From Oscillospiraceae bacterium (GTDB taxonomy: Bacteria; Bacillota; Clostridia; Oscillospirales; JAVBNY01), in NCBI GenBank assembly GCA_031551205.1, contig JAVBNY010000003.1:20590-84589 (forward strand): a stretch of 64,000 bases of DNA, given 5' to 3'. A model generated the notes under the pieces. It saw nothing but the letters and a program-made list of their open reading frames with translations, did not search any database and had not been told where the DNA came from. A program made the translations under genes and the position numbers. This document shows positions 12,447 to 60,495 of this stretch, one piece after another; the first letter of the stretch is position 1, and every line of letters begins with the position of its first letter.

Positions 12447-12560
12447 CAATCCGGAATAATTTACCTTATACCTTATAAGTATACTTATAAAAAAGGAGGC
12501 TCGCAGGATTGTCCATTGCTCTGTTCTTTAGCTATTAACAAAAAGAAAGAGGCGGAAAAA

Positions 12561-41596: not shown

Positions 41597-41600
41597 CTCC

Positions 41601-42749
41601 TCATTTGTTGCGGATCTGACGCATGATGCGCCCGAACACGTTCAGCGGCGAACGTCCAAAGGTCAGCGTCAACTTTACTCCTGAGCTGTCAATTTCATGG
41701 GCGGCGCCCGTGATCTGCATGTCGGACGATATGCCCCACTCAAGATTTTGCACGGTCACAAAGTCACCGAGAAAATAGTCTCTGCCGTATCGGTGGCGTG
41801 TGTCCAAAGTGCGGCAGGTAAAGCTTTCGTCAGTCCTGTAGTTTTCGGCCTCGATGAGAGCCTGACGCCGCAATTCGTTGTATTCCTCGCCCGCCTCGGG
41901 AGTTTCCGCCGAAACGGTGAGATGCTGCTCCCAGCGGTATATGCCCTCGGGCTCATCTTCCCCCTCGCGCGTGTACATTACGGTCAGCGCCTCGTCGGCG
42001 AACTCAGCGCCCGAGCGCGTTGTGTAAAATACGTTGCGCATAGCCGCGTCGGAGTTTATGTAGTCCTGCGCCTCGACGGTGCCGCGCCCGGGCGAAAACA
42101 CTATTCGGGGATTTACGTGTTGGCCGTACGTACGGTCCACGCCTTCAAGCACGTCAAAGATAAATGAGTGGGCGTCGAGATCCGGTGTTATCTTCCAGCC
42201 AAGTCTTGCGTTCTCGCCGATCTTCTGGAGCACCTCGGACAAAAATTCGAACCTGGTCATATACTTGTCGTCCGGTATCCCGCGTCCAAGGTCGGGGGCT
42301 ATGACAAAGCCTGTGATATTGCGCATTGGCTGGAGGCTTTCGATCACATTGTGCGCGACAAACTGTTTCATGACCGTCTCGCTGGAGCCGACTGCCGGAT
42401 CATACCCCAGCGCCCCGACGACATCGGTAAACTGCGGCGGCACGGTTGGTCTGGAGGAAAGCAGACCGTTAAGATCAAGGCCCGAGACAGTAATGGTTTC
42501 AGCGTCTTTCAAAGCCGAGATGGAGACGCTGCGGATAATGCCCCAAAAATATTGCCCTATAAACACAAGGTTGTACTTTTTAAGCTGATCCGCGTAAAGT
42601 GTTCCAAACGGCAGCTCAATCTCAAACGCTCCCGGGCCGTAAAAGCTCTCTGTCATGGATATCCGGCTTGCCCGCGAGGTTATCCCGACGCGCTTAAAAT
42701 GCGGGCTGGCAGCCGTCGGCGGCTCATATATGCGTATTTCTATCCCCAT
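41601..42749 (-). CDS. Phage tail protein, siphovirus Gp37-like
   Basis: 382 aa in the position of a tail-tip protein. The N-terminus MGIEIRIYEP...SMTESFYGPGAFEIELPFGT resembles ReqiPepy6 Gp37-like family members. Assigned from memory of the family pattern only. Confidence 0.5.
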   Translation of the reverse strand: MGIEIRIYEPPTAASPHFKRVGITSRASRISMTESFYGPGAFEIELPFGTLYADQLKKYNLVFIGQYFWGIIRSVSISALKDAETITVSGLDLNGLLSSRPTVPPQFTDVVGALGYDPAVGSSETVMKQFVAHNVIESLQPMRNITGFVIAPDLGRGIPDDKYMTRFEFLSEVLQKIGENARLGWKITPDLDAHSFIFDVLEGVDRTYGQHVNPRIVFSPGRGTVEAQDYINSDAAMRNVFYTTRSGAEFADEALTVMYTREGEDEPEGIYRWEQHLTVSAETPEAGEEYNELRRQALIEAENYRTDESFTCRTLDTRHRYGRDYFLGDFVTVQNLEWGISSDMQITGAAHEIDSSGVKLTLTFGRSPLNVFGRIMRQIRNK

Positions 42750-42798
42750 ATTCTTTGTCTCCTTTCGGGCATGACAAAGCCGCCCAAATCTGAGCGGC

Positions 42799-42827
42799 TT
42801 GACAAACGGCGGTCGCCGTGGTATATT
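42799..42827 (+). promoter_or_regulatory. Consensus promoter for an antisense small RNA
   Basis: TTGACA (42799-42804), 17 nt, TATATT (42822-42827) on the strand opposite all the phage genes. Points at the 3' end of the mini-toxin gene. Confidence 0.6.
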
Positions 42828-42833
42828 TTAGGC

Positions 42834-42922
42834 AGAGGGCAGACCGTACGAACGGTTCGCCATGGATTTAGTTATTAGAAAATAACCGCTACCTTGGCTG
42901 GGGGGCGGTTACTTTCTTTTTG
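42834..42922 (+). ncRNA. Candidate antisense antitoxin sRNA (~90 nt)
   Basis: Predicted TSS ~7 nt after the -10. Internal hairpin ACCGT-acga-ACGGT. Terminal hairpin AACCGC...GCGGTT (42884-42910) followed by ACTTTCTTTTT. Overlaps the stop codon and 3' UTR of the convergent toxin ORF. Confidence 0.45.
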
Positions 42923-42989
42923 TATCAAGGAGCGTTAAAACCAGTATCGCGAAAGCGATCATAAGTGTTAACGTCTCATATGTACTCAA
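42909..42989 (-). CDS. Holin-like toxin mini-protein (26 aa)
   Basis: Below the ORF-track size limit. TTG start 5 nt after GGAGGTGAGG. Encodes MSTYETLTLMIAFAILVLTLLDTKRK, which matches the MSxYExLxLMIxF...KK pattern of Firmicutes putative holin-like toxins (Hol-Tox). Followed by the hairpin AACCGCC...GCGGTT and then ATTTTCT. Confidence 0.6.
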   Translation of the reverse strand: MSTYETLTLMIAFAILVLTLLDTKRK

Positions 42990-43047
42990 AGGCCTCACCT
43001 CCAATCAAAGAGGTGTGGCGAACCGTCCCTTGCTGCCCTCTGAGGGC

Positions 43048-43077
43048 ATTATATTATACAGCTCTCCGCCCTGTCAA
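43048..43077 (-). promoter_or_regulatory. Promoter of the mini-toxin gene
   Basis: Minus strand TTGACA (43077-43072), 18 nt, TATAAT (43053-43048), immediately after the distal-tail-protein stop. In the 5' UTR, CACCTC (43015-43010) can pair with the GAGGTG of the RBS (43001-42996), sequestering the SD. Confidence 0.55.
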
Positions 43078-43080
43078 CCA

Positions 43081-43941
43081 TCACACCCCCATGTACGGCA
43101 GGCGGTAGCGGATGCTTGTAACCGGCGTTTCGTTTGGGCTCTCGTTCTCCACGGTCAGCACGTTTTGCCCCGGCTCCAGCGCGAAAAACTCGCTGCCCAT
43201 GGTCAGCCAGTAGCTTACATCAGCAGAGGATCCGTCGGGGCTATGTATTGTAGCCGAGCAGTCGCGCATGTTGATAACAAGCTTCTGCCCCTGCCTTATC
43301 GGGCGGTTTATGGAGATATGCCTGCCGGTGGTTTTATTCCTCACAGTGACAAGCTCGGCCGTGGGACAGACCTCGATGACCGGATATATATCCTCGGTCG
43401 ATGGGTTATGTATCCGCGCCTGGGTGATGGAATATCCAAAGACCGTATTGGAGACGTGCCACGGGAACCGAAAAAGCCTTGTCTGGTCTCCCAATACAGC
43501 AATCTTTTCTTCGGCGCTCTCCCATCCGGATACATCCGCCTGAAGGTCGATATCAAAGGCCTGAGCGTTTTCTGTCCTCTTTTCGAATGTCGGCAGGGCG
43601 GCGGGGCGGCAGCGTATGCTGCGCCCGCCCGCCTCGCTGTAGTACGTCAGCCGCCCGAAATGTTTGGGATTAAACGCCTCGCAGAGTTCGGCCCTTCGGT
43701 CATCAAGAGCGGCCTGGGCGGAATATGCTCTGTTGCCATAGGCGACAATCGGTCCCGTTATATTTATGGTTCTCGGGCCGTTTGAGACAAAGACTGTGTA
43801 ATCGCCGTCGGAGCGCGGCGGCGTGACCGTCTCCGGCCGGCCCGACATGACGTTGCCGTCTAATGTCGCCAGCAAAAACGGAGGCGCGTCGCGCAGCCGT
43901 ACCGTTCGTCCGTTTTCAGATTCCCAAAGGGCTGTTCTCAC
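43081..43941 (-). CDS. Phage distal tail protein (phage tail family, Sipho_tail-like)
   Basis: 286 aa, directly downstream of the tape measure gene with abutting stop and start. Size, position and beta-rich sequence are typical of Dit proteins. Confidence 0.65.
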   Translation of the reverse strand: MRTALWESENGRTVRLRDAPPFLLATLDGNVMSGRPETVTPPRSDGDYTVFVSNGPRTINITGPIVAYGNRAYSAQAALDDRRAELCEAFNPKHFGRLTYYSEAGGRSIRCRPAALPTFEKRTENAQAFDIDLQADVSGWESAEEKIAVLGDQTRLFRFPWHVSNTVFGYSITQARIHNPSTEDIYPVIEVCPTAELVTVRNKTTGRHISINRPIRQGQKLVINMRDCSATIHSPDGSSADVSYWLTMGSEFFALEPGQNVLTVENESPNETPVTSIRYRLPYMGV

Positions 43942-43942
43942 C

Positions 43943-45562
43943 CTATCCTACCCCCGATCCCGCTTTTTCCAGCGCCTTTGTTACCCCAAGCATCACCTGA
44001 CCGCTGGTCAACGCGGCGGCCTGGGTCATATTGATGGTTACTTTGTTAGTGGTCTGCGAATTGTCCGTAATGTTCTGCACTGCCCCCATTTGGAGCTTTT
44101 CCGCCGCCTGAGCGGCCATCTGCTCAACATTTGCCTGGGAATTGAGGAACATCTGTCGGTTCTCGGCCTCAATGGTCTTGGCATTTTCCTTCTGTGACGC
44201 CGCTAACTCCGCCTGTGTTATCCTGCTTGCCAGTTCGGCATTGACCCGGGCCTTGTCGCGCTCTGCCTGTTCGCGTGCCGCCTCAATCTGATCCCGCACG
44301 GCCTGTTTTTCCTCCTCCTTGGCCCGATACCACATCGCGTCTTCTTTTGTGCGGAGGGCCTCCTCAAGGGCCTGCTGCTTTCGGATGACCTCTTTCCGAA
44401 ACTCGGCCTCCTGCTGGGCGTCCCGGGCAAAGGTAAGCTGGGCCTGAGCGGCTTGGAGGTCTTTTCGCGCGCGCGCAATCTTCGCGTCGTAGTCCTCATC
44501 CTCGCGAAGCTCCCGGCGTTTCTGTATCTCCAGGTCAATGCCCTCGATTACGGCGGTGAGCCTGTCCTCCTCGGCCTTCTGGAGACGTTCGATGCTCGCG
44601 ATCTGCCCGTCGGCCCATTCCCGGTAGGCTTCCTGCTGCTGTTGCAGGGCGGATTTTATGAGATCAAGCTCCTTTGAGAGAGCTTCGCCGACCTCCTGTA
44701 TCATCTTTTCACTTTGTGACTTGCGGTAGCTGTATATTTTTTCAAAACCCGCTCGGTATTCGTCGGAGCTTTTATCTAGATGTTCGTTTATATACTGCTC
44801 AAGGCGGTCAAAATACTCACGTTCGCTTACGAGATCGAGCGCCCGCTCGAAGTCAAGATCAGCCATGAATTGCTTGTAGCCCTTGGCCTGCTCTTCCTGC
44901 AGGTTCTTTTCAAGTTCCGCCTTGACATCCTTTTTGTGCCTGTAAATCTCAATATTGACCTTTTTCCACTCATCGGAGCCCTCTTTGAGATGCTTGGTCT
45001 GTAACGCGAGCAAATCTGCGTAGTATTCGTCCTCGGCCTTGATGTCCATATCCCGCAGATAGTCCATTTCTGCCCGGGCCACCTTAAATGCCTCGACGGC
45101 TATCCCTTCTGAGGTCTTCTTTTTAGCTCCGCCGGAACCGGAGCTTCGGGCGCTGCCACCGCCGCCCACCTTGATAGGATTTTTAAGCATCTGGTCGAGC
45201 AGTCCAATTTGCAGATCAAGCGCTTTTGCCTCTTCCTCCATTGCCGCACGCTTGGCGATTGCCATAGCCGAGTATGCCCCAGCGGCGTTTAGCGCCCCGT
45301 TTTTCTCGTATTCAAGCTGTCTTACGATGTTGCTACGCTCTGCAACTAGCGTCGCCTGCTGCTCAAGTATTTTGGCGTTGTATAATTCGCGGTAGCTGTC
45401 GGCGCTAAGTGTGACGGCTCCGGTCTCCTCGTCGATGGCCAGCGCTGCGGCATAGCCCGCTTCCATCAGGGACAGAGTGGTCTTTGCCGACAGCTCGCCG
45501 TTGTTTTTTTGCTCATCAAGGGCAGAGGCGAGGGCCTCAGCCTCTCCGATCAGGTCGCCCAT
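43943..45562 (-). CDS. Phage tail tape measure protein, probable 5'-truncated fragment
   Basis: 539 aa, Ala/Glu/Gln/Lys-rich coiled coil (QQQEAYREWADGQIASIERLQKAEEDRL...). The frame stays open ~120 nt upstream without a start or RBS. No chaperone or tube genes lie upstream. Confidence 0.65.
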   Translation of the reverse strand: MGDLIGEAEALASALDEQKNNGELSAKTTLSLMEAGYAAALAIDEETGAVTLSADSYRELYNAKILEQQATLVAERSNIVRQLEYEKNGALNAAGAYSAMAIAKRAAMEEEAKALDLQIGLLDQMLKNPIKVGGGGSARSSGSGGAKKKTSEGIAVEAFKVARAEMDYLRDMDIKAEDEYYADLLALQTKHLKEGSDEWKKVNIEIYRHKKDVKAELEKNLQEEQAKGYKQFMADLDFERALDLVSEREYFDRLEQYINEHLDKSSDEYRAGFEKIYSYRKSQSEKMIQEVGEALSKELDLIKSALQQQQEAYREWADGQIASIERLQKAEEDRLTAVIEGIDLEIQKRRELREDEDYDAKIARARKDLQAAQAQLTFARDAQQEAEFRKEVIRKQQALEEALRTKEDAMWYRAKEEEKQAVRDQIEAAREQAERDKARVNAELASRITQAELAASQKENAKTIEAENRQMFLNSQANVEQMAAQAAEKLQMGAVQNITDNSQTTNKVTINMTQAAALTSGQVMLGVTKALEKAGSGVG

Positions 45563-45654
45563 AGCAGATGAGAGGTCTTTCAGGGAGGCGGTATAGCCCT
45601 CGGTGGAGGAGGCCGCGTCAGCAGCGGCGCCCGAGGTACGAGCAGGAATACAAG

Positions 45655-45876
45655 ATGCAGTATATGTACTGGTATAACCGGGTCAAGAAGCTCCGCAAAG
45701 CCGCCGACGGGACTGACCGATTTGAAAAGGCGGAGTCGGCGCTGGTAGCTTTCCGTAAGGAGGCTGTACAGCGGAAAAAGGCTGTTGCGGGCGGGACAAC
45801 AGACGAAGCCGATTTCCGCAACTGGATGTTCCGGCAAGGACAGGTCATTGACGGGTTGATGGAGGAGGGGGGTTGA
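45655..45876 (+). CDS. Small hypothetical protein at the prophage truncation junction
   Basis: MQYMYWYNRVKKLRKAADGTDRFEKAESALVAFRKEAVQRKKAV... (73 aa). Composition is plausible for a real protein, the RBS is weak, and it lies on the strand opposite the tail genes. Confidence 0.3.
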   Translation: MQYMYWYNRVKKLRKAADGTDRFEKAESALVAFRKEAVQRKKAVAGGTTDEADFRNWMFRQGQVIDGLMEEGG

Positions 45877-46054
45877 TGCCTAACGCTCACCTGCATTTTA
45901 TATAATACGCGAGTTCACTCGCCTACTTCCGAGTTTCGGCATTATCCAAAAACTATACGAGTATACCGCCGCAATTAGTCCAAGACTTCATAAAAAATTC
46001 TCGCGTTTCTGATATAATATTAAATGAGACCAGCTCCTGATCGGTGGTGAATCC

Positions 46055-48022
46055 ATGAAGCGAAAACAAAACACCGTATTCTTTTCCATATTATTGCTCA
46101 TTTTCCTCGCCTGCGGCGCGCTGTGGCTGTGGACGGATTACCTCGTCACGCATATCTCCGCAGAGGGCGGCGAACGGAATTTGCGCGAAGTGGACTTTTC
46201 TGCCGGCTGTTTCGACCTTTACGGCCCGGTGGAATACATACCTAATGTGCTGTTAACTCCGGAGGAATTTGAAGCGCGTCGGGACGAAATCCAGATTGGC
46301 AATCCGGCGGGCGAAGACCCATACAGCACCAGCCGCCTGCGCGTCTATGTGCCCGTGGGAACATACGGTCTGATGATGTGGAACGCCGAGCTTGCGGCTA
46401 ATATTTACATAAACGGTCAGTTCATGGAAAGCGTCGGCGTCCCCGTCGGCAATGCGGAGCACTCCATTCCGGGCGTAAAACTGCTCTATTTCACAACGGA
46501 CGCCCCGGACGGCGTGATCGAGATTGTACAGCAGGCGTCCAACCATGTTCTGCCGGGGAGCGACAGCCATGCGGACATCCTCATCGGCAGGCCGGAGAAC
46601 ATTCGGGATATTTACAATCAGTACCGCGGCATCCCGACTATGGCGATGGGCTGCTTTCTCGCGCTGGCGCTGGCGCACCTGATTCTTTTCTCCCTGTTCC
46701 GGTCGTACAAGGCGAACCTGTGGTTTGCGCTGTTTTGCTTTGGCTGGTTTTTGCGGACGGGATATGTCAACCCGTGGATTTTATCCACACTGTTTCCGCT
46801 GCCGTGGGGCGCGCTCTTTCGCTTGGACTGCCTGACCTATCCGGCCGGAGCACTGCTATTATGCCTGTCGCTGAACGCGCTGTTTCCCGGTGTGATTCAA
46901 AAGTGGTTCCGAATTGCGCTCTCTGCCGCCTGCGGCATATTTGCCTGCGCGAGCCTATTCCTTGGCAACGCTGCTCTGTGGGATACCATGTCCTATTTTA
47001 ACGCCGTGATCTTTCTCACGGCGGCATACTTACTCGTCCGACTGTGCATGAAGGTGAGGAAGCCGAATGCGGAACAAATTGCCGTTCTCGCGGGGCTTGG
47101 CATCTTTCTTTTCGGCGTTCTGCGGGATATCCTGCACTTTGAAATCCTTCCCGCACAGCACGTCGTGAGCGAGCTAACCCGGCACACGATGGCCGAGTAC
47201 GCACTGCTCGCCTTTGTGTTTTTCCACATGGCCGCCATGTTCCGCAGCACCATGCGGGAGATTGCGGCGGCAAAAGAAGCCGAGCAAAGGCGGGCGATGG
47301 AAGCCGAATCAGAGCGGCGGCTCAGCGCCATGAAAAGTGAGTTTATGGGTGAGCTCTCCCATGAGCTCAGGATGCCGATCTCGGCCATATCGGGCTTTGC
47401 CCAGTATTTTCAGGAGCTGCTCGGCGACGAGACACTTGATATTGACGAACTCCGATACGGCGCGCGGCGGGTCGAAAGCGAGACCGAGCGCATGGACAGG
47501 CTGGTGAGCCAGCTGCTGGACATGTCGGCCATTGAGGCGGGCCGCTTCTCCATCCGCAAAGAGCGTGTTTCGGTGGAGGATTTATTCGACCGGATACGCC
47601 GCAACTACTTCCCCATGATGAACGGCGGGCGCAACCGGCTTGTCGTAAAGCTCGACCGCGATATCGTGATTTACGCAGACCGGGAGCGTGTTCTGCAGGT
47701 GCTGTTAAACCTCGTTTCCAACTCCTGCAAATACACCGAGGACGGCGAAATCACCCTTGCCGCCGAAAAAGAAAACGGCGTGGTCAGGTTCAGCATTGCC
47801 GACACCGGCGAGGGCATGGCCCCCGAAATATTGGCGGCAATCTTCACGCGATACCCGCAGATGCGGGGCGGCGTCAAGGGCGTGACGGGCAACGGGCTGG
47901 GGCTGTTCATCAGCAAGAAGCTGGTTGAGGCTCACGGCGGCGGGATAGGCGTCGAAAGCAACCCCGGAAAAGGGACAAGGGTGTGGTTCACAATTCCAGC
48001 GGAAGGAGAGGATGCAAAATGA
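46055..48022 (+). CDS. Sensor histidine kinase with 7TMR-DISM-like N-terminus (extracellular domain + 7 TM), HisKA and HATPase_c
   Basis: N-terminal TM, a ~190 aa extracytoplasmic domain, then ~7 TM helices. H-box FMGELSHELRMPISAISGF. N and G boxes LLNLVSNSCKYT, ADTGEGM and GNGLGLFISKKLVEAHGG. Confidence 0.85.
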   Translation: MKRKQNTVFFSILLLIFLACGALWLWTDYLVTHISAEGGERNLREVDFSAGCFDLYGPVEYIPNVLLTPEEFEARRDEIQIGNPAGEDPYSTSRLRVYVPVGTYGLMMWNAELAANIYINGQFMESVGVPVGNAEHSIPGVKLLYFTTDAPDGVIEIVQQASNHVLPGSDSHADILIGRPENIRDIYNQYRGIPTMAMGCFLALALAHLILFSLFRSYKANLWFALFCFGWFLRTGYVNPWILSTLFPLPWGALFRLDCLTYPAGALLLCLSLNALFPGVIQKWFRIALSAACGIFACASLFLGNAALWDTMSYFNAVIFLTAAYLLVRLCMKVRKPNAEQIAVLAGLGIFLFGVLRDILHFEILPAQHVVSELTRHTMAEYALLAFVFFHMAAMFRSTMREIAAAKEAEQRRAMEAESERRLSAMKSEFMGELSHELRMPISAISGFAQYFQELLGDETLDIDELRYGARRVESETERMDRLVSQLLDMSAIEAGRFSIRKERVSVEDLFDRIRRNYFPMMNGGRNRLVVKLDRDIVIYADRERVLQVLLNLVSNSCKYTEDGEITLAAEKENGVVRFSIADTGEGMAPEILAAIFTRYPQMRGGVKGVTGNGLGLFISKKLVEAHGGGIGVESNPGKGTRVWFTIPAEGEDAK

Positions 48023-48705
48023 GCCAAAAGAAACCTGTTGTTTTTATGATCGAGGACGATCTGTCCATGCGGGAACTAAACCGGCGCACCCTCGCCCGGC
48101 GCGGCATCGATACGGTCTGCGCCGAAACGCTGAAGGAGGCGCGGAGCCTGCTGCGCGAGCCGTTCGACCTAATTTTGCTTGATCTCCTTCTTCCCGATGG
48201 CAACGGCCTCGACTTCGTGCCCGAGATTCGCGCCGTCACCGCCGTTCCCATCCTGATGCTGACCAGCAAGCGGGAGGACGAGGACATTGTGAAGGGTCTG
48301 CTGGGCGGCGGGGACGACTACATGACCAAGCCTTTCCGCAATGAGGAACTGTACGCCCGCATTGTTGCGCTGCTAAGACGGGTGGAGTTGGCCGAAACGC
48401 GCGGGCGTGAGATCACAAAAGGCTTGCTCAAGCTGGATACGGTGGCTGGCCGGGCGACGCTTTCGGGCGAGGATATACAGCTTGCGCCCAAGGAGTTTGC
48501 GGTGCTGCTTTTGCTCATGCAAAACGAAGGGAAAGTGTTTACAGCCGAAAAGCTGTATGAAGCCGTCTGGAAGCTGCCGATGGCAAGCGACGACCACTCG
48601 CTCAAGAACGCGGTTTACCGCCTGCGTAAAAAACTGGAAAGCGGCGGCAGCGATTATGGGATCACCGCGGCGCGGGGCGAGGGGTATTGCTTTGAAAAGG
48701 TTTAG
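48019..48705 (+). CDS. OmpR-family response regulator
   Basis: Its start overlaps the kinase stop (ATGA). The receiver has VVFMIEDD, FDLILLDLLLPDGNG, LMLTS and YMTKPF. Winged helix LAPKEFAVLLLLMQNEGKVFTAEKLYEAVW...LKNAVYRLRKKL...GEGYCF. Confidence 0.9.
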   Translation: MSQKKPVVFMIEDDLSMRELNRRTLARRGIDTVCAETLKEARSLLREPFDLILLDLLLPDGNGLDFVPEIRAVTAVPILMLTSKREDEDIVKGLLGGGDDYMTKPFRNEELYARIVALLRRVELAETRGREITKGLLKLDTVAGRATLSGEDIQLAPKEFAVLLLLMQNEGKVFTAEKLYEAVWKLPMASDDHSLKNAVYRLRKKLESGGSDYGITAARGEGYCFEKV

Positions 48706-48769
48706 GCGATTAGAACGCCCCTGTTGGGATTGTCAATAGCTTTGTCAATAATTTTAGAAAAATATTCAG

Positions 48770-48805
48770 CGCGAAAGTCCCATTTTTGAGACTTTCGCGT
48801 TTTTG
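48770..48805 (+). terminator. Terminator after the response regulator gene
   Basis: CGCGAAAGTC-ccatttttga-GACTTTCGCG followed by TTTTTGTG. Confidence 0.7.
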
Positions 48806-48904
48806 TGTTCCCCGCATGGTAAAATGTAGGTACGTATCAAAAGAAGTCCAAAGACTTCTGTTTTTTTATTTGCACTCCATTTTTAATGGAAAGGAGCGTG
48901 TTTC

Positions 48905-49312
48905 ATGCCGGAGCAAAAAGCTGTGCTGCTGGTGGACAATGAGCCCAATCTGCTGCGCCTGAACACGCGTGTGCTGGAGCGCGAGGGCTATTATGTCCTG
49001 CCCGCGCGAAGTCTGCGCGACGCACGGTGCCTCATCAAAGACGTCGTTTTCCATGCCGCCGTGCTGGAAGCGGAGCTGCCCGACGGGAGCGGCCTGGACT
49101 TCTGCCGGGAACTGCGGGAGATGAGAGGCGTTCCCGTCGTGCTGCTGACAGCACTCAAGGGGAAAGGGCCCGAACAAGCCGGATATGAGGCCGGCGCCGG
49201 CGACTACATCGTAAAGCCTTATCGTATCGAGCAACTGACCGGGAGCATTGAGGCGCTCCTAAATCGAAAAGCATCAGACAACCCCCATATTATTGAGGAG
49301 GCAAAAAAATGA
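48905..49312 (+). CDS. Stand-alone receiver-domain protein with Glu in place of the phospho-acceptor Asp (pseudo-receiver)
   Basis: RBS AAAGGAG. 135 aa. Aligns with the upstream regulator through LPDG.GLDF, where DLILLDLLLPDGNG corresponds to HAAVLEAELPDGSG (D to E). The acidic pair is DN rather than DD. Thr (LLTA) and Lys (IVKPY) are retained. The stop overlaps the start of the next gene. Confidence 0.8.
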   Translation: MPEQKAVLLVDNEPNLLRLNTRVLEREGYYVLPARSLRDARCLIKDVVFHAAVLEAELPDGSGLDFCRELREMRGVPVVLLTALKGKGPEQAGYEAGAGDYIVKPYRIEQLTGSIEALLNRKASDNPHIIEEAKK

Positions 49313-52300
49313 AATATTCACTCAAGCGTGCGCTTGCAATGCTTCTTGTTTTGGTGTCGATACTCGGCATCGTACCCATGAACGCATTGGCGGTGGAGAC
49401 TCATTACAGCGACACATCCGGCCATTGGGCGGCGCCGGCTATCTATAGATGGTCGGGATACGACGTCCTAAACGGCTATGCCGGCATGTTCAGGCCGAAT
49501 GACCCGATCACCCGCGCGGAAATGGCGACCGTGCTGACAAAGATCGTCGGCTACACCGCTGCCGGAACGAACTCGTTTTCCGATGTCGACAGCGGCAAAT
49601 GGTATTATGATGCCGTACTCAAACTTGCCACGGCCGGCATTATGCTCGGTTCGGACGGAAGGGCCCGTCCGGAGGACAGCATTACCCGCGAGGAAGCGGC
49701 AACTCTTATATCCCGGACTTTTGACATTCCTGAAAACACCACAGACCCCAAGCCATTTGGCGATGCGGCGAGCATCTCCGCGTGGGCGGCAGGTTCTGTC
49801 GGCGGGTTGCACGCCGCAGGGTACATTGCGGGCAAGCCGGGCAATGTGTTTGGACCCAAAGCAAATATCACAAGGGCAGAAACTGTGACCATTCTCGACA
49901 ACATGGTCAAAGCTTTCTATCACTCCAAAGGGGAGTACAGTGCCAGCGTGAACGGCAACGCGGTTGTGCGCGCCGACGGGGTCATATTAAAAGACACCGC
50001 GGTGTCCCGCAATCTCTATCTTACGGAGGGCATTGGTGGTGGCAACGTCACGCTGAACAACGTCACTATCAACGATACGACCTACATACGCGGCGGCGGC
50101 CCGAATTCCGTCCGCGCGACAGGCGGCGATTTGGGCGCTGTGGTATTGAACAGCCTGACTAGTACACATCTGGATCTTTCAGGCGATACAAAAGCTTCCC
50201 GAATCACCATTCGCAACACCGGAACGGTGACCCGCGGTGACATAACCGTGGCGTTTGACGCCGCAATGGGAACGCTAACGCTCGGCGGAACGTTTGACAA
50301 GGCAACACTGCACGCGGACGGTGTGATGAGTGTCACCGCCGGAGGGGTATCATATGAGATCATACCGCCCGAAGGCAAGGTGACGGCGCTCACGCTCGCC
50401 GAGGGCAGTATTGTTAAGGAAATGGACTTAAGCGCGCCATTACATATTACCGGGACGGGTCAAATCGACAATCTGAGCATTCACGCGAGCGGCGTGATGA
50501 TAGACAGCGGCGTGAAGATAAATCCGGATCGCATCGCCATAGACAAAGAGCTCTCCGTGACAGTGGGCGGGAAAACCTACACGGGTATCTCCGACGGTGG
50601 CAGCGGCGGCAACAGTGGCGGCGGTGGCGGCGGTGGCGGCTCTACCGTCAAGGTCTCCTATGAGACATTCGGGGAGCCGAAAATCGACCCCTCCATAATC
50701 GCCAGAGGCGCCACTCTTTCCGACGTACCTCAGCCAGTGCGGCCGGAAGACTCTTTTATCGGCTGGTATACCGATACCGGCTTCACCCAGCCGTTTGACG
50801 CAACCCAGCCGGTTGCCGGGGACATGACGCTGTACGCCGATTGGACGGAGCGGGACAACAACTACGTGGAGTATGCGGACCCGAATAAGTTCATCGACGA
50901 CTGCGACCCGCGCTATGCTATAGCCGTCCTGTCGCCGTTGGCACAGTTGACGCAGACAAACCTGGTAGACTATGTACTGATCGAGGGAAATGGGGAGATC
51001 CCCGCGTTTGCCGTGACCGACCTGGGGAGCGGCCGCTACAAAATTGAGCCGCAATCGGATTACGAAGCGGGCTGCCTGTATACCTTTTCCCTGAAAGACG
51101 ACACGCTGATCTTCGACGGCGAGGACGCAGCCGTGCGCACGCTGACCATCCGGCCGTTCAAAGCGGAGAGCAAAAACGTTGATTTTAACGATAACATCTT
51201 CGATGTGAACTGGGACGATGTGAGCGATTACACAGTGGTCGAGGAAACGGGTATCGGCTCGATGAAGATCCCTGCTCTCCAATACAGCGCCGTCAAAGAG
51301 GCCTTCCTTCTGAACAGCTTCAATCCGGAAGCTCAGACGACCATACGAATCCAGGATTCCAGATACAGCTTGGGGGAAGAAAACTACCGTGAGACGGAGT
51401 ATTGCAATATAACGTCTCTGACGCAGACGGGCGATCTTCTCACTTTGCAAATAGAGAGCAGCGAACCGATAGACGTCTTTGACGATTTGGACGTGTACCT
51501 CAAGGATGTAGAGGTAGATCTGACTGACTATATGAACAGCCTGAATCTGAATGCCCTGGCCGAACAGGCTGAACAAAGCGCAGGCGCGCGGCAGATGGGA
51601 GAGCTGCTCAACGCAGCACTCGCCGAGAGTCCAACGGTGCAGGGCTTGCTGAAAGAGCCAAACGCCCTAGCGGCGGGCCTGTCGTCCGCGGCAGACTACG
51701 GCTTTAAGACGCCTTCGCGTGAGAAGGAGGAAAACTTACTGCCGGCCGCATTCGACATGTTCTTGTCACTGGTCGACGTCAAAGCAACGACCGGTGAAAC
51801 GGACAACGCCAATTTTTACAACAGGCCGGGTTACTTTGTCACGGTGGAGTTTGGCTACAGCGGCACCATCAAGAACAAGGTTCAGGTGGACGCCACCTTC
51901 AAGGTGACGGAGTATATGAGCCTCTATGCCGACTTGGACGCTCAGTATCACGGCGTGTGGAAGAAACCGAAAACATGGGACGACCTGGAGGTTACTTTCC
52001 TCTCCAATATCTATTCGCAGACAGACATTTCGGTGGACGTAGTGGCCAAATCCGTGAGCCAGGATCCGGCTTACTCCTATGAGATCAACGTTACCGAAGA
52101 ACTGACCAAGCTGATGAGCGGCGACGAGCAAGCCGGCGCGGGCGCCTCCTCCATGCTGAAAAAAGTGCTTGCTGACCAGGGGGATTATGTGGAGATCATC
52201 TCGCTGCCTATTGCCAAAGCGAGCATCCAGATCATCCCCGAGGCGCCGGTCGTCCAGGTCGATTTCGATATGAATTTCGTGATCAAGGCCAGCTTTGCCG

Positions 52301-55300
52301 CGGGCGTTCATGCCGACATGACCTTCCTCAACACACGGGCGCTAGGCTTTTACTACAATCTGGACAACGGGGACAAGAAAGACTACAACGTGCCCATCGG
52401 GAGCTATGACGGCGAATACTACATCGACCTGTGGGTCGCCGGGTATTTCGGCGTAAAGGCCGGTGTGTACGGCGAGGTCAGCGTTGGAGTCATCGGCCTG
52501 AAAGAGATTTTCGACGCGGGAATGTCTCTGGAGGTCGGCGCGTTTGCCGACATGTGGGGGCTGATCCATTTGCTGCACTACAAAAACAATTCTCCATCCT
52601 TCCGGGGGACCGACGTGCAGGGCGGATTGTATTTTGAAGTCGGCATCTACGTGGAAGCGTCCGTGTTCGTGCGCTCCAAGTTTCTAAGCAATTTTATGGA
52701 TGCCGCAGAGGCGAGATGGACGTTTTTAGACTTGAAACCCCCGCTGTTTACCTTTGGCGATCAGTATTTATTGTTGAGATTCATGAATAACAATTCGCGT
52801 ATTCTAACGCGCGGGGATTTGCCGCTGACCGGGGGCAGCGGGCTGTTCGACGCGGAGGTCATCGACCTGAAAACGGGGAATATCTTTAAAGGAAGTGAAT
52901 ATATCACCTCCGATAAATTCGCAGTTAACGTACCGTCGCCCTACTTTGAAGTAGATTACACAAACAAAAAAATAAAAATGCGTACGGATAAATTGGGCGA
53001 CCGTACCATTACCCCTTACTTCCCGGCGGGCACACAAACCTTGTCTTCCCCCGCCACAGTCTATTACAAAGGCGGCTCCCTGGCCTTTGGCACCCATACC
53101 GTCATACCTTCGGGCGTTGCGGAGTGGATGTCTTCTCAAAAGGGAATCACGTTGGTCTGGGCGCATCCCACCCTGGAGATCGGCGATTTTGACGACTTGA
53201 AATCCTACAAGGCGTCCTACTATTTGGAACTGGATGGGCAGAGAACCCTGTTGGATCAAAGAGACGTTCTGATGGGGCAGGTACCGGGCGCGCCCCTCTT
53301 GCCAAACGCGAAATGGCCTGACGCCACCTGGAAATTCGACATAGAACTGCGCAATAACTGCGTGGTGAAGGGGGTCTCTCCGGATTTCTACAGCGCGATT
53401 ACCAAGGACACCGATTACATCATCAAAGCGGAAAAGCTGCAGCGGCTGGCGGCCATTGTTTCGCACCACGACGGCGCCTGGTACTTTGACGTCTACGCAG
53501 TGAACTGCGGAGAGATGCCCGCGTTGCCCGCCGGTTACGACGCAGGCTTCGGCGGCTGGACCACGCCCGTAAGCTGGTACGTTGAGAGGGGCTATCCGGA
53601 CTTCAGCGTAACCGCCTTTGATGAGCTTCAACCGGCAGGCAACAAATATAGGGCCGGAATGAACGAAAAAGGGGAAACGGTTTACTCCTTCCGGCCAGAC
53701 GCCACCTGCGTGAGCGGCTACCCCACCGACAGGCCGATTTACAGCTACAAAAGCCCAATCACCGAAGAATATTCCGAGTATCTGTTCAACGATTATTCGG
53801 CGCATGGGTACATGCACAAATTCAAGCGGCCCGCCAAGGACTTTGGGCCCGCCAAGGATATCTTGGGGTCGTGGTGGACGGACTACTACGATATCAAGCC
53901 GGCAGACCGGTTCGGCAACTATTTTGAGGATGCCAACTGGATGCGTTTCTACGAATACCTGTATGTTGCCGAGTACGCCAAGCAGGAATTCACCGTCACA
54001 TTCAACGCCGGGGATGGTGTGTTCTCCGCAGACATGCAGGAACACTTGGATATGTATGGCATATACACACAAGACTATTTGATGAACACGACCCTGGGTA
54101 CGCTATATGGCAGTACAGTCGTTCCTCCATCTGATGATCCGGCCAACACCTATATTCTGAGCGGCTGGAAAGACCAGGATGGCAAAGAATATCAGCCGGG
54201 CGAACGGTACGTGGTCACAAAAGATATGATCTTTACCGCCATGTACACCGTCGTGCCTGATGAGTACACCATTTCGGTCTACCCCGTCGGTGCGGCCTTC
54301 CCGGACGACGACGGGAAAAAGACCTTCACCGGAGCATTTGGCGCCCAGACCGGCATTGGTGCGGCCATTGATTTCAACCTGTTTGACAGCTGGACGGTCT
54401 CTGCCGGCGCGGGATATGACTACGTCTTTGACGGATGGTATTTTGCCGGCAGCAGTGAGAAGCTCACCGCCTGGCCGGAAACGTTTGGGACTTTCGGCAA
54501 AGAAGCGCGCAACATCGTAATTGTCGCCAAAATCAAGCTCGCCACCCAGCTGCACACCATAACCTTCGACGCCAACGGCGGCGCGTTTGAAGGCGGCCAA
54601 ACGACTTATACCAAACAGTACGAGCACGGGGCAATTATTAACCCGGCAGAGATTCCCGTGCCGACGAGGGCGGAAGACGATTTCTTCACCTATACCTTTG
54701 CCGACTGGGAGCTTTACGGCGCGCTGCAGCCCGTAACCCAAGGCCACACCTATTACGCGGATTGGACGAAAACGCTGAAAGGTGGCGCTGCTTTGCCGGA
54801 GGGCATTATGATTTCCAACGGTGTGACGAGCGAGGATATCAACTGCGTGAACCTCGGCGGTGGGTATACGCCCATAGCGGGATACACGTACGAGCCAGAC
54901 AGCAATGGCGTTCCGACACTGACAATCACCGCAAACGGGCTGACCATCAGCGGTGCGGTGAGCGGCACTGTCAATGGCCCGGAGGACACGGTGGCGATCT
55001 TTATCGAGGAAACCGTCACCGACGTCACATTTAAGGATCTCTCCCTGACAGGTCTTCACGAGTACGGCGATGTGATCAGTACTTACGGTGGCGATCCTCT
55101 GACGATAACCATAGCGGGCGTATGCAGCTTCGAAAAACAAAATGACGGCACGGAAGGGACGCTGCGCAGCGTGATCCGCAGCCACAGGGATACCCAGATT
55201 ATTGGCGCGGATGCGGGCGCGCAGCTTTCGATTACGGCGTCAAGAGCCGGAGGCGTATCGTGCTACGGGGATCTTGTGTTTGAAGCTCTCGATATGACGA

Positions 55301-55776
55301 TAAGCGCCATGGGAATCATCTATTACAGAGATTCTGACGGCGACGGGACCCCAGAGTCTCCCGCAATGGCACAGGCCTTTACGGGTGATGCGCAAATGGA
55401 GATTAGGTTCATTGGCTCAAACGTGGAAATCGAGTCGCCAGGGGTCCTGCTTTTTGAAAGCGGCGTAACCCTTGTAGGCGCCACCGATCTCTCCTTTGTA
55501 TCGACCGACGAAAGCCCCGCGCTCGAGCTCGGAACGCTGAATTTTGAGGATTTTACCGGCAGCTTCGAGGCCTCCTTTGAGAATGCGGGAACTACAAAAC
55601 CGATTGTACTGGCGATCGGCGGCATAACGTTCACCGCTTCCGGTTCTGCGGATGATCCTGCGGATTACGGTGTGACTGTCGGCCGGTATTTTGACGAAAT
55701 ACCCGAGACTAACTACTACACCTTCGTTGATGGCAACGGTAACCCGCTTACCACGGTTTCGGTAGCCAAGCGGTAA
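49309..55776 (+). CDS. Giant (2155 aa) SLH-anchored surface protein with beta-helix-like region, Gly linker, Listeria-Bacteroides (Flg_new) repeats and uncharacterised domains
   Basis: Signal peptide [28 protein letters not shown]. Three SLH repeats ([47 protein letters not shown] and similar). Linker [16 protein letters not shown]. Flg_new-type units ([40 protein letters not shown]...[23 protein letters not shown]...YTFADWE...HTYYADWTK). Confidence 0.85.
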   Translation: [2155 protein letters not shown]

Positions 55777-55791
55777 AAACGCCATGAATAA

Positions 55792-55829
55792 AGTGCGGGT
55801 ATCGGAATTTTTGACCCGATACCCGCACT
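55792..55829 (+). terminator. Terminator after the giant SLH gene
   Basis: AGTGCGGGTATCGG-aatttttgac-CCGATACCCGCACT followed by a T-rich tail. Confidence 0.7.
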
Positions 55830-55946: not shown

Positions 55947-56775
55947 ATGCCAAGTAATAACAGCAAATATTCAGAGGAGATGCGAGCTCAAACAGCGCAG
56001 TATATCATCGAAAGCGGGAAATCAGCGGCTAGTATGGCAGAGGAGCTTGGGGATTGATACAAACACCGTCTGCCGGTGGGTGCGGGAGTACCGAAAAGCG
56101 CATAAGCTGCCGAGCTATGCGGAGTCAAAAGGGATAAGAAGAACGGCGCCCAAATCCGAAAAAGAGCTGCTGCGCACGCGTGAGCTGGAACGTGAACTCA
56201 AGCAAAAAGAGAAGCTTTTGTCGGAAGAACGAGAAAAGGTCGAAATCTTAAAAAAATCCCTGCACATCTTCATGCAAACTCGCGGATGAAGTATGAAGCG
56301 ATACGAAAATACAGCCCTGTTTATTCGGTGAGGAAGATGTGCAAGGTGTTGGGGCTCAAAGAGTCCGGGTACTATCAATGGTTCGGACGATATGAAAGGA
56401 ATGCAGGGAAACGTCTTGAAGAACAGCGGCTTTCGGAGGTTGTCGGAGAGGTATTTTCTGCGAACCGGTGCGTTTACGGATACCGCAAAATACAGCGCGC
56501 CTTGGCGAAAGAGGGCGAAGCGCTCAGCGTATATAGAGTCAGGAAAATCATGCGATCCAATGGGTATTACCCGGTTGTGGTCAAGAAACACCGGCCGACA
56601 CGCAACGGAAAAGCCGACGGCCGTTTTTACGAAAACAAGGTGCAGCAGCAAGGCTTATCAGTCCATGCTGAAGAAATTCAACATAATTTGAAACATGTCA
56701 AGACCGTCCTGCCCGTATGACAACGCTCCCGCTGAGAGTTTTTTCAGCGCCGCAAAGCGGGAGCATTGTCATACT
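55947..56775 (+). mobile_element. IS3-family insertion sequence remnant (frameshifted orfA, internally deleted orfB)
   Basis: orfA reads MPSNNSKYSEEMRAQTAQYIIESGKSAASMAEELG, then an extra G in a G-run breaks the frame before IDTNTVCRWVREYRKAHKL...LKKSLHIF. An A7 slippery run lies near the orfA end. orfB keeps the N-terminus (MKYEAIRKYSPVYSVRKMCKVLGLKESGYYQW...) and only the extreme rve C-terminus (CPYDNAPAESFFSAAKRE). The DDE core is missing. Confidence 0.75.
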
Positions 56776-57972
56776 TCATTGTCAGGCCGGAGTTTGATAT
56801 GTCGGGGTTGTTTTCCAGCGACACGGTCAGCGTCACCTTCGAGCCTGCCTCGCCGGATGCGCTTGAGACAGTTACTTTTGGGGTGTTTGCCGGGGCCGGT
56901 TCCTCAATATCGATCGAAAACACTACCGGTTCCGAGGATCCGGCCTCATTTGAGGCGATCACGGTGAAATTGCTCGTACCTATCGTCGTTGGCGTGCCGG
57001 AAATAACGCCGCTGCCGCTGATACTTAAGCCGCTTGGCAAACTCCCAGAGAAAATGTGAAAGGAGGTTGGCAGATTGTCGGCGGTTATTGTAACGGAATA
57101 TTGCGTTCCCACACTACCCGATGTGAGCGGGCCGGAAGGCGCAGTGATAACGGGCGAGATCGGCGTTGGAGCCGGATACTCCTGATTCAAAATTGCATAT
57201 GTATGCGCATACGCTTCAACAGAGGAATAGATGACTGCATTAGCCGAGTAAAGGAACGCATGGTCTCCGATACTCATTACGCTGTCAGGAATTATGGTGC
57301 TCTTGAGGCTATAGCACCAGCTAAAGGCGTAACTGCCGATGCTCGTCAAACCGTCCGGAATGACCACATTCGCGAGGCCCCTGCATTCCTCAAACGCGGA
57401 GCCGCCGATGCTCTGCACGGTATCCGGGATCGTTACGGAGGTAATGCCTCTGCAGGTATAAAACGCGTAGCCGCCGATGCCCTTAACGCTGTATACCACG
57501 CCGTTTAAGGCGGCGCTTGACGGGATTGCAAACAAGCCGACAGTCGTCGCCGTGCTGACCGCCGGGTTCAGGCCGTCTCCCACCTGCGCCGTACCCGTAC
57601 CGCCAAATTCCGCCAGCACTTTGTAGGTAATGCCGCCGACGGTAAAAATATTTCCCGGTTCGGGCGCGCGCACAACGGTCAGTCTGTTCCATTTTCCGTT
57701 TACATCGGTTGTGAAGCCCGCGCGCCGCTGTAAATATAAGCTTTGGCGTTATCGGAAAGATTATAAAAAGCATAAAGTCCAACAGTCGGCGCGTCGCCAA
57801 AAAAGTACACGGAGATCAGGCTTCGGCAGTCGCCAAACGCCCAGTCGCTGATGCTGGTCACGCCGCTCCCAATCGTCACGGATCCGATGCGGGAGTCGTA
57901 AAACGCATAGTCGCCGATGTTCGTCACGCTGTCAGGAATCGTCATGGGCGAATGTTTATAAAAATTTATCAA
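56775..57972 (-). pseudogene. Decayed BspA-type LRR surface protein gene (N-terminally truncated, frameshifted, 3' end cut by the IS remnant) with He_PIG-like Ig and cohesin-like fragments
   Basis: Two frames (57700-57972 and 56744-57673) join as ...AKAYIYSGA(R)GFTTDVNGKWNRLTVV... across a frameshift near 57715. No signal peptide. LRR_5 repeats ITSVTIPDTVQSIGGSAF. LPSGLSISGSGVISGTPT is a putative Ig domain. VTVSSASGEAGSKVTLTVSLENNPDISNSGLTM is cohesin-like strands that end abruptly at the IS junction. Confidence 0.65.
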
Positions 57973-58872: not shown

Positions 58873-60495
58873 CTATCCGCGATCTCGCACGGCGCCCCGC
58901 TCCTTCATCATCTGCGCATACACCATGAGCTCCTTGCGGGACGTGACGTCCAGCTTCATATATATGCGTTTATTATGCGTCTTGATCGTGTTGATCGACA
59001 GGCACAGGGCGTCCGCTATCTGCCTAGCGTCGCAGCCCTCAAGGTATAGGTTGAATACGGCCCTCTCGGCCGGCGACAGAGCGCCGATTTTTTTAATAAA
59101 CGCATCGTACATAGTCGATGAGGCGGGCTTTGCCTCAGAAGCCTGCGCGCTCTTCCCGCGCGCTGAGTCCTGTCCGCTCAAAAACTCTATCAGATCGTCG
59201 ATCTCCGGGATGCGTGTTCTTCCATATTCCTGCGCGCCGGATTCCCTGATCATGCGAAGCGCCTTCAAAACAGGTGAAAGATACCGCCTTGTGAGCACGA
59301 CGGCAGCGAGCAGGCAGAGAATGAAAAAAAACGCCATAAGGCCGATCACCCTGCCGCTGCGCTCAGATACAAAGGCCGTGAAATCCTCCTTTGGCATCAT
59401 CACGGCGAGCGCCCATCTCCGCCCGGCAAAGGCGGAATCGGCCGGGTGGAGAGATATCTCCTCAAACACCCCTGTATATTCTGTCCCGTCGGCGGCAAGG
59501 AACTCGTCAAGCGTATCGTCCCTGACCGTCAGCGCGCCCGCAAGCGCCCGCCGCTCTGCCGGATAGCTGCCCGCCAGCAGCGCACCCGACGCATCTAAGC
59601 GCCCGTCTTCCGTCATCGGCGCGATCATGGAGCACACCCGCGCATACGTCTCGTCCGGAGGCGAATATCTCGTCTTAAAAAGCTGCCCGCTTATCGAAAA
59701 GCCGCACATGCCGATCACGGTTTTGTCCTTTGTGAGAATCGGGACGCACAGAAATACCGACGGGATGTTGCCTCCTTCCAACGCAAAGTCGGAGGTCCAG
59801 AAGCAGAGGCGGGAGAGCACGGGAACACTCCCTCCCGCGGCGTTTTTTGCCGTTTCAAACATACCGCTATCGTATGCTTCGATTTCCTCGCGCCACTGGG
59901 GAAGAAGCGGGAGCCCCTTCTCCCGCGCGACTGCCATCGGTCCGCGCAGATAAGCAAGCCGCCGGCCCTCCGCGCCCCCTGTATCCGGCTCAGCGCTTTT
60001 GAGATACAGCCCCGCGCGGGAACGGCCCGCGGCGGCAGGCGAGGGGTTTGTTGTCGCGTTCAGGATCAAAAACGCTCCGCTTGCACGGCTTTTTTCAAGA
60101 GAGGCCTCGAGACTGTCGAAGGATCCGGCTAAAAGCCCTGTCAGGATCTCCGGGCGGCTTTGAATCCCGTCCGGCCTGACGCCGCCGCTTTTAAGCTGCC
60201 CATCCAGATATGACGAGAGCCCTTCTGCCAGCGCCGCGCCGTCATCGGACAGCTCTCCGAATTCTTCCGATACGTCCTCCGACAGGTGGCTTATCTCGTT
60301 GCGGAGCCAGGCGCTCGTCTCTGCATGTCCCGCTGACAATGCTCCGCTCAGGAGCAAAATCAGCGCGGTGCCCGACATGACGACGGCAAGAAAGAGAAGA
60401 AAAAACAGGAGCAGCCGTCTCTGAAGTGAGACGCCGCGGCTGCCCATATTTTTTATGTCCTCGCTGATCATTTCTGTCACTCGGGGTCTGCTCAC
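58873..60495 (-). CDS. Membrane-anchored LuxR/GerE-family transcriptional regulator with extracytoplasmic sensor region
   Basis: GTG 60495 after GGAGG. TM1 LLLFFLLFLAVVMSGTALILLL, a ~330 aa loop, TM2 VIGLMAFFFILCLLAAVVL, and a C-terminal HTH LSPAERAVFNLYLEGCDARQIADALCLSINTIKTHNKRIYMKLDV. Confidence 0.8.
   Translation of the reverse strand: MSRPRVTEMISEDIKNMGSRGVSLQRRLLLFFLLFLAVVMSGTALILLLSGALSAGHAETSAWLRNEISHLSEDVSEEFGELSDDGAALAEGLSSYLDGQLKSGGVRPDGIQSRPEILTGLLAGSFDSLEASLEKSRASGAFLILNATTNPSPAAAGRSRAGLYLKSAEPDTGGAEGRRLAYLRGPMAVAREKGLPLLPQWREEIEAYDSGMFETAKNAAGGSVPVLSRLCFWTSDFALEGGNIPSVFLCVPILTKDKTVIGMCGFSISGQLFKTRYSPPDETYARVCSMIAPMTEDGRLDASGALLAGSYPAERRALAGALTVRDDTLDEFLAADGTEYTGVFEEISLHPADSAFAGRRWALAVMMPKEDFTAFVSERSGRVIGLMAFFFILCLLAAVVLTRRYLSPVLKALRMIRESGAQEYGRTRIPEIDDLIEFLSGQDSARGKSAQASEAKPASSTMYDAFIKKIGALSPAERAVFNLYLEGCDARQIADALCLSINTIKTHNKRIYMKLDVTSRKELMVYAQMMKERGAVRDRG

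Follow-up and report, generated by a model that had tools for sequence, protein, structure and literature searches.

The stand-alone receiver of 135 amino acids (aa) that is encoded at positions 48905 to 49312 (+ strand) of a stretch of 64,000 nucleotides (nt) from contig JAVBNY010000003.1 of an Oscillospiraceae bacterium belongs, as third component, to a portable signalling cassette of kinase, regulator and receiver, and the cargo that follows this cassette is interchangeable. The whole 64,000-nt stretch is referred to here as the window and all positions are given in its numbering; the loci of relatives carry numbers between L003 and L102, and W stands for the window locus. In the window the cargo is a gene for a 2155-aa surface protein, termed the giant. 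The receiver itself is an aspartate-less pseudo-receiver, and the change of its phospho-acceptor Asp to Glu is private to this genome among the 33 members of its family. Judging from comparison of the sequences, we put at about one half (0.5) the probability that the receiver feeds back on the kinase and regulator pair, acting as a phosphate sink or as an inhibitor that binds the kinase.

A cassette with interchangeable cargo

The region contains four genes, for kinase, regulator, receiver and giant, all running in one direction on the + strand. The first (46055–48022) encodes a sensor histidine kinase of 655 aa, which has an extracellular N-terminal region and, by Pfam, a 7TMR-DISM 7TM block (PF07695, 45 bits against a cut-off of 29), HisKA (PF00512, 48.8 bits) and HATPase_c (PF02518, 94.4 bits). 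The presence of all three domains identifies it as a 7TMR-DISM sensor kinase. An extracellular 7TMR-DISMED2 domain was not found, residues 1–202 being without any Pfam family at E <= 0.1. The second gene (48019–48705) encodes an OmpR-family response regulator of 228 aa with Response_reg and Trans_reg_C domains and a canonical active site (E12 and D13, then D, T and K; residues EDDTK), and its ATG at 48019 overlaps the kinase TGA (48020–48022) as ATGA. A first-pass annotation of the stretch had described this overlap, a terminator after the two genes, a receiver paralogous to the receiver domain of the regulator, and an overlap of the receiver stop with the ATG of the 2155-aa, SLH-bearing giant at 49309–49312, and each of these features was reproduced here.

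The gene contexts of eleven distinct family members, the window included, were read. In nine of them the same 7TMR-DISM kinase and/or OmpR regulator is encoded directly upstream of the receiver. The full order of kinase, regulator and receiver is present in the window, L003, L004, L005, L096/L097, L099 and L100/L101; in L007 only the 3' end of the regulator gene is visible, at the contig edge upstream of the receiver, and in L098 a remnant of the regulator gene lies upstream, parted from the receiver by an inserted toxin–antitoxin pair. Each of the three proteins is orthologous in five loci or more. Among the window, L003, L004 and L005 they are 63–80% (kinase), 66–80% (regulator) and 63–77% (receiver) identical. 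The ratio of non-synonymous to synonymous substitution rates (dN/dS) is 0.11–0.16 for the kinase, 0.13–0.29 for the regulator and 0.07–0.19 for the receiver, values that show purifying selection. The DNA homology of the window with L003, L004 and L005 extends from 46046 to 49260, that is from the start of the kinase gene to the 3' end of the receiver gene, and ends there.

The proteins encoded downstream, Ig-like or FIVAR adhesins among them, are mutually unrelated except for SLH domains or one short repeat. Where the window has its SLH giant, L003 has a 1397-aa Big_3_5/Flg_new_2 protein, L004 a 1239-aa Big_2/CBM_X2 protein, L006 a 2952-aa SLH giant, L007 a 1370-aa GDSL/SLH protein, L096 a 992-aa FIVAR protein together with a 1210-aa MBG_2 protein, L099 a solute-binding lipoprotein of 259 aa and L100 a protein of at least 830 aa; L008 and L098 both carry LRR_5 lipoproteins. 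The cargo of L005 is an ECF sigma factor and then a radical-SAM/SPASM peptide cluster with C39 transporters. On that contig (3533–13515; a JGI metagenome, record AustNasuHG) the cassette is followed by the sigma factor gene, small open reading frames (ORFs), the radical-SAM/SPASM enzyme and two C39-peptidase/ABC transporters, so that the cargo is a modified-peptide cluster and not a surface protein. In ten of the eleven loci the first downstream gene begins with a signal peptide or a lipobox, and the position of a single-domain receiver directly upstream of a gene for an exported protein, first noticed in the window, is in these ten contexts a conserved arrangement.

The giant provides a second line of evidence. 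A single homologue of its central 1041 residues was found among 5.8 billion proteins (P0127, in L102), and this protein matches the giant from end to end at 62% identity. In the 7.5 kb upstream of it there is no gene for a receiver, a kinase or a regulator; an 827-aa GerE-type regulator and a 78-aa ORF are found there instead. The expectation that homologues of the giant would be preceded by a conserved receiver was therefore not borne out. In L102 (4455–13981) the homologue is called as two genes of 1395 and 743 aa, and tblastn aligns all 2155 aa in one segment. A GerE/sigma-70 region 4 protein, of 540 aa, is also encoded in the window at 58873–60495 (- strand). Since the cargo is unrelated between loci and the only homologue of the giant is without a receiver, the receiver belongs to the signalling cassette and not to the giant.

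The receiver and its family

Response_reg (PF00072; 65.5 bits, cut-off 30.2) is the sole Pfam domain of the receiver, covering residues 7–115, and having no output domain the protein is a single-domain response regulator. It is without Trans_reg_C and is not itself an OmpR/PhoB-family regulator, only its receiver part being OmpR-like. Its identity with the receiver domain of the regulator is 36%, and in a motif that both have, the regulator reads DLILLDLLLPDGNGLDF and the receiver HAAVLEAELPDGSGLDF. An AF2 model (pLDDT 83.8) shows a regular (beta-alpha)5 domain, five strands in alternation with five helices; residue 55 is at the end of beta3, residue 82 at the end of beta4, and K104 comes after beta5. 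The nearest structures found by Foldseek are OmpR/PhoB-type receivers, namely ArcA-BeF3, YycF, RstA and ArlR (TM 0.8–0.9), and the family is descended from receivers of this type.

The active site consists of D11, N12, E55, T82 and K104. E55 aligns with the acceptor Asp of other receivers, D52 of ArlR, the acceptor of MtrA (phmmer) and D57 of CheY, and in the CheY alignment D11/N12 correspond to D12/D13, T82 to T87 and K104 to K109. The Thr at the end of beta4 and the Lys after beta5 are thus those of a canonical receiver, whereas E55 stands in place of the acceptor Asp and N12 in place of the second Mg2+-binding acid, D11 being present. These alignments bear out the earlier description of a Glu at the acceptor site and an acidic pair of DN, and exclude a true Asp at that site. 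As it has neither the acceptor Asp nor the second acid, the receiver is an aspartate-less pseudo-receiver by the published definition (PMC12632262). In pseudo-receivers an acceptor site that has lost its Asp most often carries Glu, and Asn is common at the second acid (Bourret et al. 2025, PMC12632262). A Glu at the acceptor is often, but not always, phosphomimetic. The E55 codon is GAA (49067–49069), and two Logan assemblies from different runs, which are 100% identical to the window over 1.1–1.2 kb, also have GAA; its repetition in two independent assemblies means that the Glu codon is not an assembly slip. With E55 and N12 together, phosphorylation of the window receiver is ruled out.

A protein search delimited a discrete family of stand-alone receivers, 122–163 aa long and 43–77% identical, which a broad gap in score sets apart from ordinary regulators. 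The family census was taken on an alignment of 33 sequences that includes the window copy. An Asp occupies the acceptor site in 32 of the 33 and Glu in the window copy only, the closest orthologue (77% identity) also having Asp, and the substitution is therefore not a trait of the family. The Lys is invariant (33/33). At the second acidic position there is an Asp or Glu in 20 sequences, Asn in 11 and Lys in 2, and 20 retain the switch Thr, the others having Ala (11) or Ile (2) in its place. By the five-residue definition 16 of the 33 are pseudo-receivers, the window copy being the only one that is aspartate-less. Maule et al., in 2015, are said to have dealt with such aspartate-less or pseudo-receiver domains.

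About a dozen family members have a Pro/Ser/Asn-rich insertion of 4–16 residues after CRELR, for example RKLCDNSPLSTGNSPFS, which lies between alpha3 and beta4, after window residue 71 in the family alignment (A3); in the sub-clade with this insertion Asn also stands in for the second acid, and Ala for the switch Thr. When one genome per species was scanned with the family alignment, generic response regulators at 29–40% identity were recovered and no true family member. A metagenome scan with a back-translated EREGYxVLPAR pattern gave seven loci, of which only L089, on a contig shared with L101, contained a family member. In a profile search of 1.84 billion representatives the best 150 matches were mostly multi-receiver proteins, and of these 150 only P0009, P0022, P0033 and P0036 represent the family.

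The strongest competitor to feedback on the kinase and regulator, possible but on the whole unlikely, is that Glu55 is a recent loss-of-function change, neutral or mildly deleterious, in one lineage; the receiver would then be dead and a phosphomimetic reading of it over-interpreted. That Glu is private among the 33 sequences fits this explanation, as does the fact that a single third-position change, GAT or GAC to GAA, suffices to produce it, and the neighbouring residue (V56A) and three well-conserved columns (F80L, E88G and D99G) are also changed. However, nothing interrupts the ORF, and the Shine-Dalgarno sequence and the promoter and leader elements that belong to it are kept. Lineage-specific substitutions number seven in the window receiver and five in its sister sequence, and departures from conserved columns (5 of 47) fall within the family range of 0–11. 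Tests of relaxed selection or decay in the window receiver, by dN/dS, substitution counts and conserved columns, found neither, although an inactivation of very recent date would have left no other sign. The association of Glu with a lost second acid is, moreover, the combination that makes PhoB constitutively active, PDB entry 2jb9 (PhoB D10A/D53E) bearing the title 'constitutively-active double mutant'. The window receiver is of the same structural type and has the same two kinds of change in N12 and E55, but the PhoB protein is a laboratory mutant of a DNA-binding regulator whereas the window receiver is natural.

It is less likely still that the receiver heterodimerises with the receiver domain of the regulator, in the manner of CmrR/CmrT or BldM/WhiI, and tunes DNA binding and not the kinase. 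In sequence and in structure it comes closest to the OmpR/PhoB receivers, whose dimers form through alpha4-beta5-alpha5, and AGADDYITKPYRIERL, comprising the end of alpha4, beta5 and the start of alpha5, is among the most conserved segments of the family. There is also a precedent in Clostridioides difficile, where heterodimers of a canonical and a Glu-bearing regulator, CmrR and CmrT, have been reported (PMC12548384). The CmrRST system resembles the window cassette in that a single kinase is combined with a canonical OmpR-type regulator and a Glu-bearing receiver protein (CmrT E53). It differs in that CmrT keeps a DNA-binding domain while the window receiver is bare, and in that the window Glu is a single-lineage change in a family that keeps its Asp; the gene order, and the promoter and leader that the window receiver has of its own, also set the two apart. 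At the basic positions 'A-R ... R-R' of alpha5 in the regulator (ELYARIVALLRR), which we take to be part of the OmpR/PhoB dimer interface, the family has non-basic residues (RLVKSLNTLIA). The replacement of these positions argues against the canonical symmetric interface.

Expression signals, the giant and the surroundings

The space between the regulator and receiver genes contains several elements that are retained among loci. T1, the terminator at 48768–48804 (+ strand), is a hairpin of GCGAAAGTC-loop-GACTTTCGC followed by T5 (-19.7 kcal/mol, z -5.8); it is found upstream of the receiver gene in nine of the eleven loci, with compensatory changes at 6 of 10 pairs and 93% of cells paired. Beyond it, at 48817–48825 (+), comparison of the loci identified an extended -10 element, TGGTAAAAT (TGnTAAAAT), as the candidate promoter of a receiver–cargo operon. 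TGnTAAAAT is present in seven loci, 16–19 nt past T1, and is invariant in the six that also have the leader hairpin hp2 (alignment A4). This promoter-proximal, terminator-like hairpin (48842–48867, +; -8.1 kcal/mol, z -2.35) reads AGAAGTC-CAAA-GACTTCT and then G and T7. It starts 15–18 nt past TGnTAAAAT, and its T-run is T6-7 across loci. The arms and T-run are invariant in W and in the equivalents at L003 9936–9960, L004 7685–7708, L005 3042–3067, L007 250–275 and L099 2221–2246, while the loop is 4–9 nt. Synonymous sites are near or beyond saturation among these loci (dS 0.8 to above 2), yet T1, the -10 element and hp2 are conserved. The receiver–cargo unit thus appears to have a candidate promoter of its own, insulated from the kinase–regulator operon, and a terminator-like leader.

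The hp2 motif occurs once in the window, among the 102 loci only upstream of receiver genes, and in none of about 95 unrelated loci; L096 and L100, the more distant of the cassette loci, as well as L006, L008 and L098, all of which have the receiver, are without it. No Rfam match was found in 45500–49500, hp2 included. A role of hp2 as a double-stranded DNA operator was rejected, because a loop that varies from 4 to 9 nt favours an RNA hairpin over an operator of fixed spacing.

Between the regulator stop and T1 there is also a direct repeat, TTGTCAATA-N3-TTGTCAATA (48730–48750, +), with 12 nt from start to start; apart from this adjacent pair, the window has no exact copy of TTGTCAATA on its + strand. 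L007 has ATTGTCAATAG in its place and L003 has ATTGTCAT. The pair may be an OmpR-type direct-repeat site, which is not conserved across all cassettes, and as a shared regulator site it was rejected on this ground. A candidate extended -10 for the kinase–regulator operon, TGATATAAT, was read directly from the sequence at 46010–46018 (+) and lies at the matching place in L003 and L005. A regulator site common to the kinase and receiver promoters was likewise rejected; the window alone has GACTTC ahead of its kinase gene, L003, L004, L005 and L096 being without it.

It might be supposed that the receiver family and its private expression signals form a portable 'output gate', plugged in before costly exported proteins by recombination at the 3' end of the receiver gene, in which the receiver, phosphorylated or locked by Glu, sets read-through or translation of the cargo, but we regard this as improbable. 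Even less probable is the narrower form in which the receiver and hp2 together make a new gate, for example by controlling read-through of the leader terminator. The invariance of the hp2 arms and T-run in six loci in the face of saturated synonymous sites, the restriction of the motif to receiver leaders and a loop variation that suits an RNA hairpin are in favour of such a gate; against it, five receiver-bearing loci have no hp2, the hairpin is weak, and a bare receiver domain is not known to carry a surface that binds nucleic acids.

The junction between receiver and giant is compact. A GAGGAGG Shine-Dalgarno sequence (49295–49301) lies within the 3' end of the receiver gene, 7 nt before the ATG of the giant (49309–49311), which overlaps the receiver TGA (49310–49312). 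The same 4-nt overlap of receiver stop and cargo start is found in four of the eleven loci (window, L003, L096 and L099), the other seven having gaps of 14–146 nt. The giant gene (49309–55776, +) encodes an exported protein with a signal peptide, judged by inspection of the N-terminus, three SLH domains (Pfam, 117.7 bits in three stretches, residues ~33–210), a Gly-rich linker and, by Pfam, Flg_new repeats both around residue 450 and within the C-terminal third, and it can be classed as an SLH-anchored surface protein. About 1000 central residues had no family match in the Pfam search, and an AF2 model of residues 511–1200, built on a two-sequence alignment, was unusable (pLDDT 32.9). A terminator-like hairpin, AAGTGCGGGTATCGG-loop-CCGATACCCGCACTT, was read by eye from the sequence after the giant at 55791–55829 (+).

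The first-pass annotation had suggested that translational coupling at this junction links the receiver to the giant, and that the receiver could act as a decoy, connector or chaperone-like factor for it. The tightly packed unit, the ATGA overlap and the good Shine-Dalgarno sequence stand, and the decoy or connector role survives as a property of the cassette; a link with this particular giant does not, and a chaperone-like function for it is unsupported. The reading in which the receiver is dedicated to the giant, very improbable in our estimate, is on the comparative data largely refuted, since the strong Shine-Dalgarno sequence and the overlap that favour it, the latter present in three other loci too, are set against orthologous receivers with unrelated cargo that includes a 259-aa solute-binding lipoprotein and an ECF sigma factor, a sole homologue of the giant without a receiver, gaps in place of the overlap in seven of the eleven loci, and five other large ORFs in the window, four of them with secreted-enzyme or surface-repeat domains, that have no receiver upstream.

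A C-terminal domain of ~130–170 aa, 31–38% identical and unnamed by Pfam, recurs in four other very large proteins of the window (2885–7792, 9252–12287, 12516–19508, 19600–23298 (-)), namely a GH10 xylanase with DUF1349/GH43_C2, an LRR_5 protein, a BACON-rich protein and a carboxylesterase/beta-lactamase-fold protein; it may be a common anchoring or sorting module.

The surroundings of the cassette include parts of mobile elements. A partial siphovirus tail module (37899–45562, -) encodes a collagen-repeat fibre/phosphoesterase, a Gly-rich protein, a Gp37-like minor tail protein, Dit and, in the tape-measure position, a coiled-coil protein of 539 aa. The module breaks off immediately to the left of the kinase gene, so that the cassette abuts a prophage remnant. 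Directly after the terminator of the giant there is a frameshifted remnant of an IS3-family transposase (~55948–56967), in which a stop at ~56053 breaks OrfA; it retains HTH_21 and, of the integrase core, no more than the final part. The remnant adjoins, or runs into, the end of an LRR_5/He_PIG/cohesin gene on the minus strand (56744–57673). In L096 (988–9868) genes for TnpW, a serine recombinase, AbiEii and a MobA/MobL relaxase and an HTH_17 gene lie directly upstream of the cassette, which suggests that the cassette is carried there on an integrative mobilisable element. Together the tail module, the IS3 remnant and the relaxase and recombinase genes of L096 suggest that the cassette is mobile.

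Proposed feedback on the kinase and regulator

In the feedback model the receiver, as first cistron of the operon that follows the cassette, would be made along with the output, so that its amount would report the output level. A protein of one domain can act only through its binding partners, and the likeliest of these are the kinase or the regulator of its cassette. Across the family the receiver would most likely be a second phospho-acceptor, or a competitor at the kinase, and its activity as phosphate sink or kinase inhibitor would bring about negative feedback on an expensive product. The conservation of the active site is in keeping with this, as the near-universal Asp and invariant Lys, but a switch Thr and a second acid that are each kept in only 20 of the 33 sequences, point to acceptance of phosphate or docking to the kinase above a Thr-based output switch. 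In the genome studied here the E55/N12 form would act by dosage alone, either as a locked binder that is independent of phosphorylation or as a sink of reduced strength, under which the regulator would be more active. The E55 protein may thus be a locked, dosage-dependent binder and may equally be a recently disabled sink.

There are precedents for such a circuit. The gene for Osp, a receiver-like single-domain protein of Rhodobacter sphaeroides, is activated by the output regulator, and Osp binds the transmitter domain of the kinase and inhibits it without being phosphorylated, which results in negative feedback (PMC9430884). The likeness to Osp, by analogy, lies in a stand-alone receiver and the same proposed circuit logic. 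Osp differs in that it keeps the Asp and is without the acidic pair and the Lys, and in that it is monocistronic and belongs to a CckA-ChpT-CtrA phosphorelay of alphaproteobacteria. Single-domain regulators that serve as phosphate sinks include LovR with LovK in Caulobacter and CheY1 in Sinorhizobium. These are also stand-alone receivers beside a kinase that compete with the output regulator, and the conservation of Asp and Lys in the family would fit such a role; known sink genes, however, are not the first cistron of a regulated cargo operon. In this genome the function of sink is lost as such, for the window copy is unable to take up phosphate. The place of the receiver as first cistron before swappable exported cargo, and its conserved leader, are unusual features of an accessory receiver of a kind already known.

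Several observations weigh against the feedback model. In L006 and L008 a receiver–cargo pair is present with no kinase or regulator nearby. Both loci keep a T1-type hairpin upstream of the receiver gene (L006 9650–10001; L008 2133–2283), from which the T1–receiver unit, as these two loci suggest, can move or persist alone; in L006 the hairpin comes after a dCache_1 chemoreceptor gene. The four alpha1 positions that determine kinase specificity in RR468, compared between regulator and receiver, are similar in the window clade (SMLT vs NLLV) and dissimilar in a distant clade (NLSL/RLSL vs MLLV/AMAV). If hp2 is an efficient terminator, it would complicate simple co-expression of receiver and cargo. 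A regulator-binding motif common to the loci was sought upstream of the receiver promoter and none was found.

The striking link between receiver and giant is an accident of which cargo follows the cassette, and no dedicated mechanism underlies it. The findings should be useful to students of auxiliary receivers and pseudo-receivers, while opening no new field. If the feedback model is true, the cassette would be a compact, modular sensor that is reused by gut Clostridia for very different exported products, and the Glu55 copy would be a natural experiment on what its third component does without phosphorylation.

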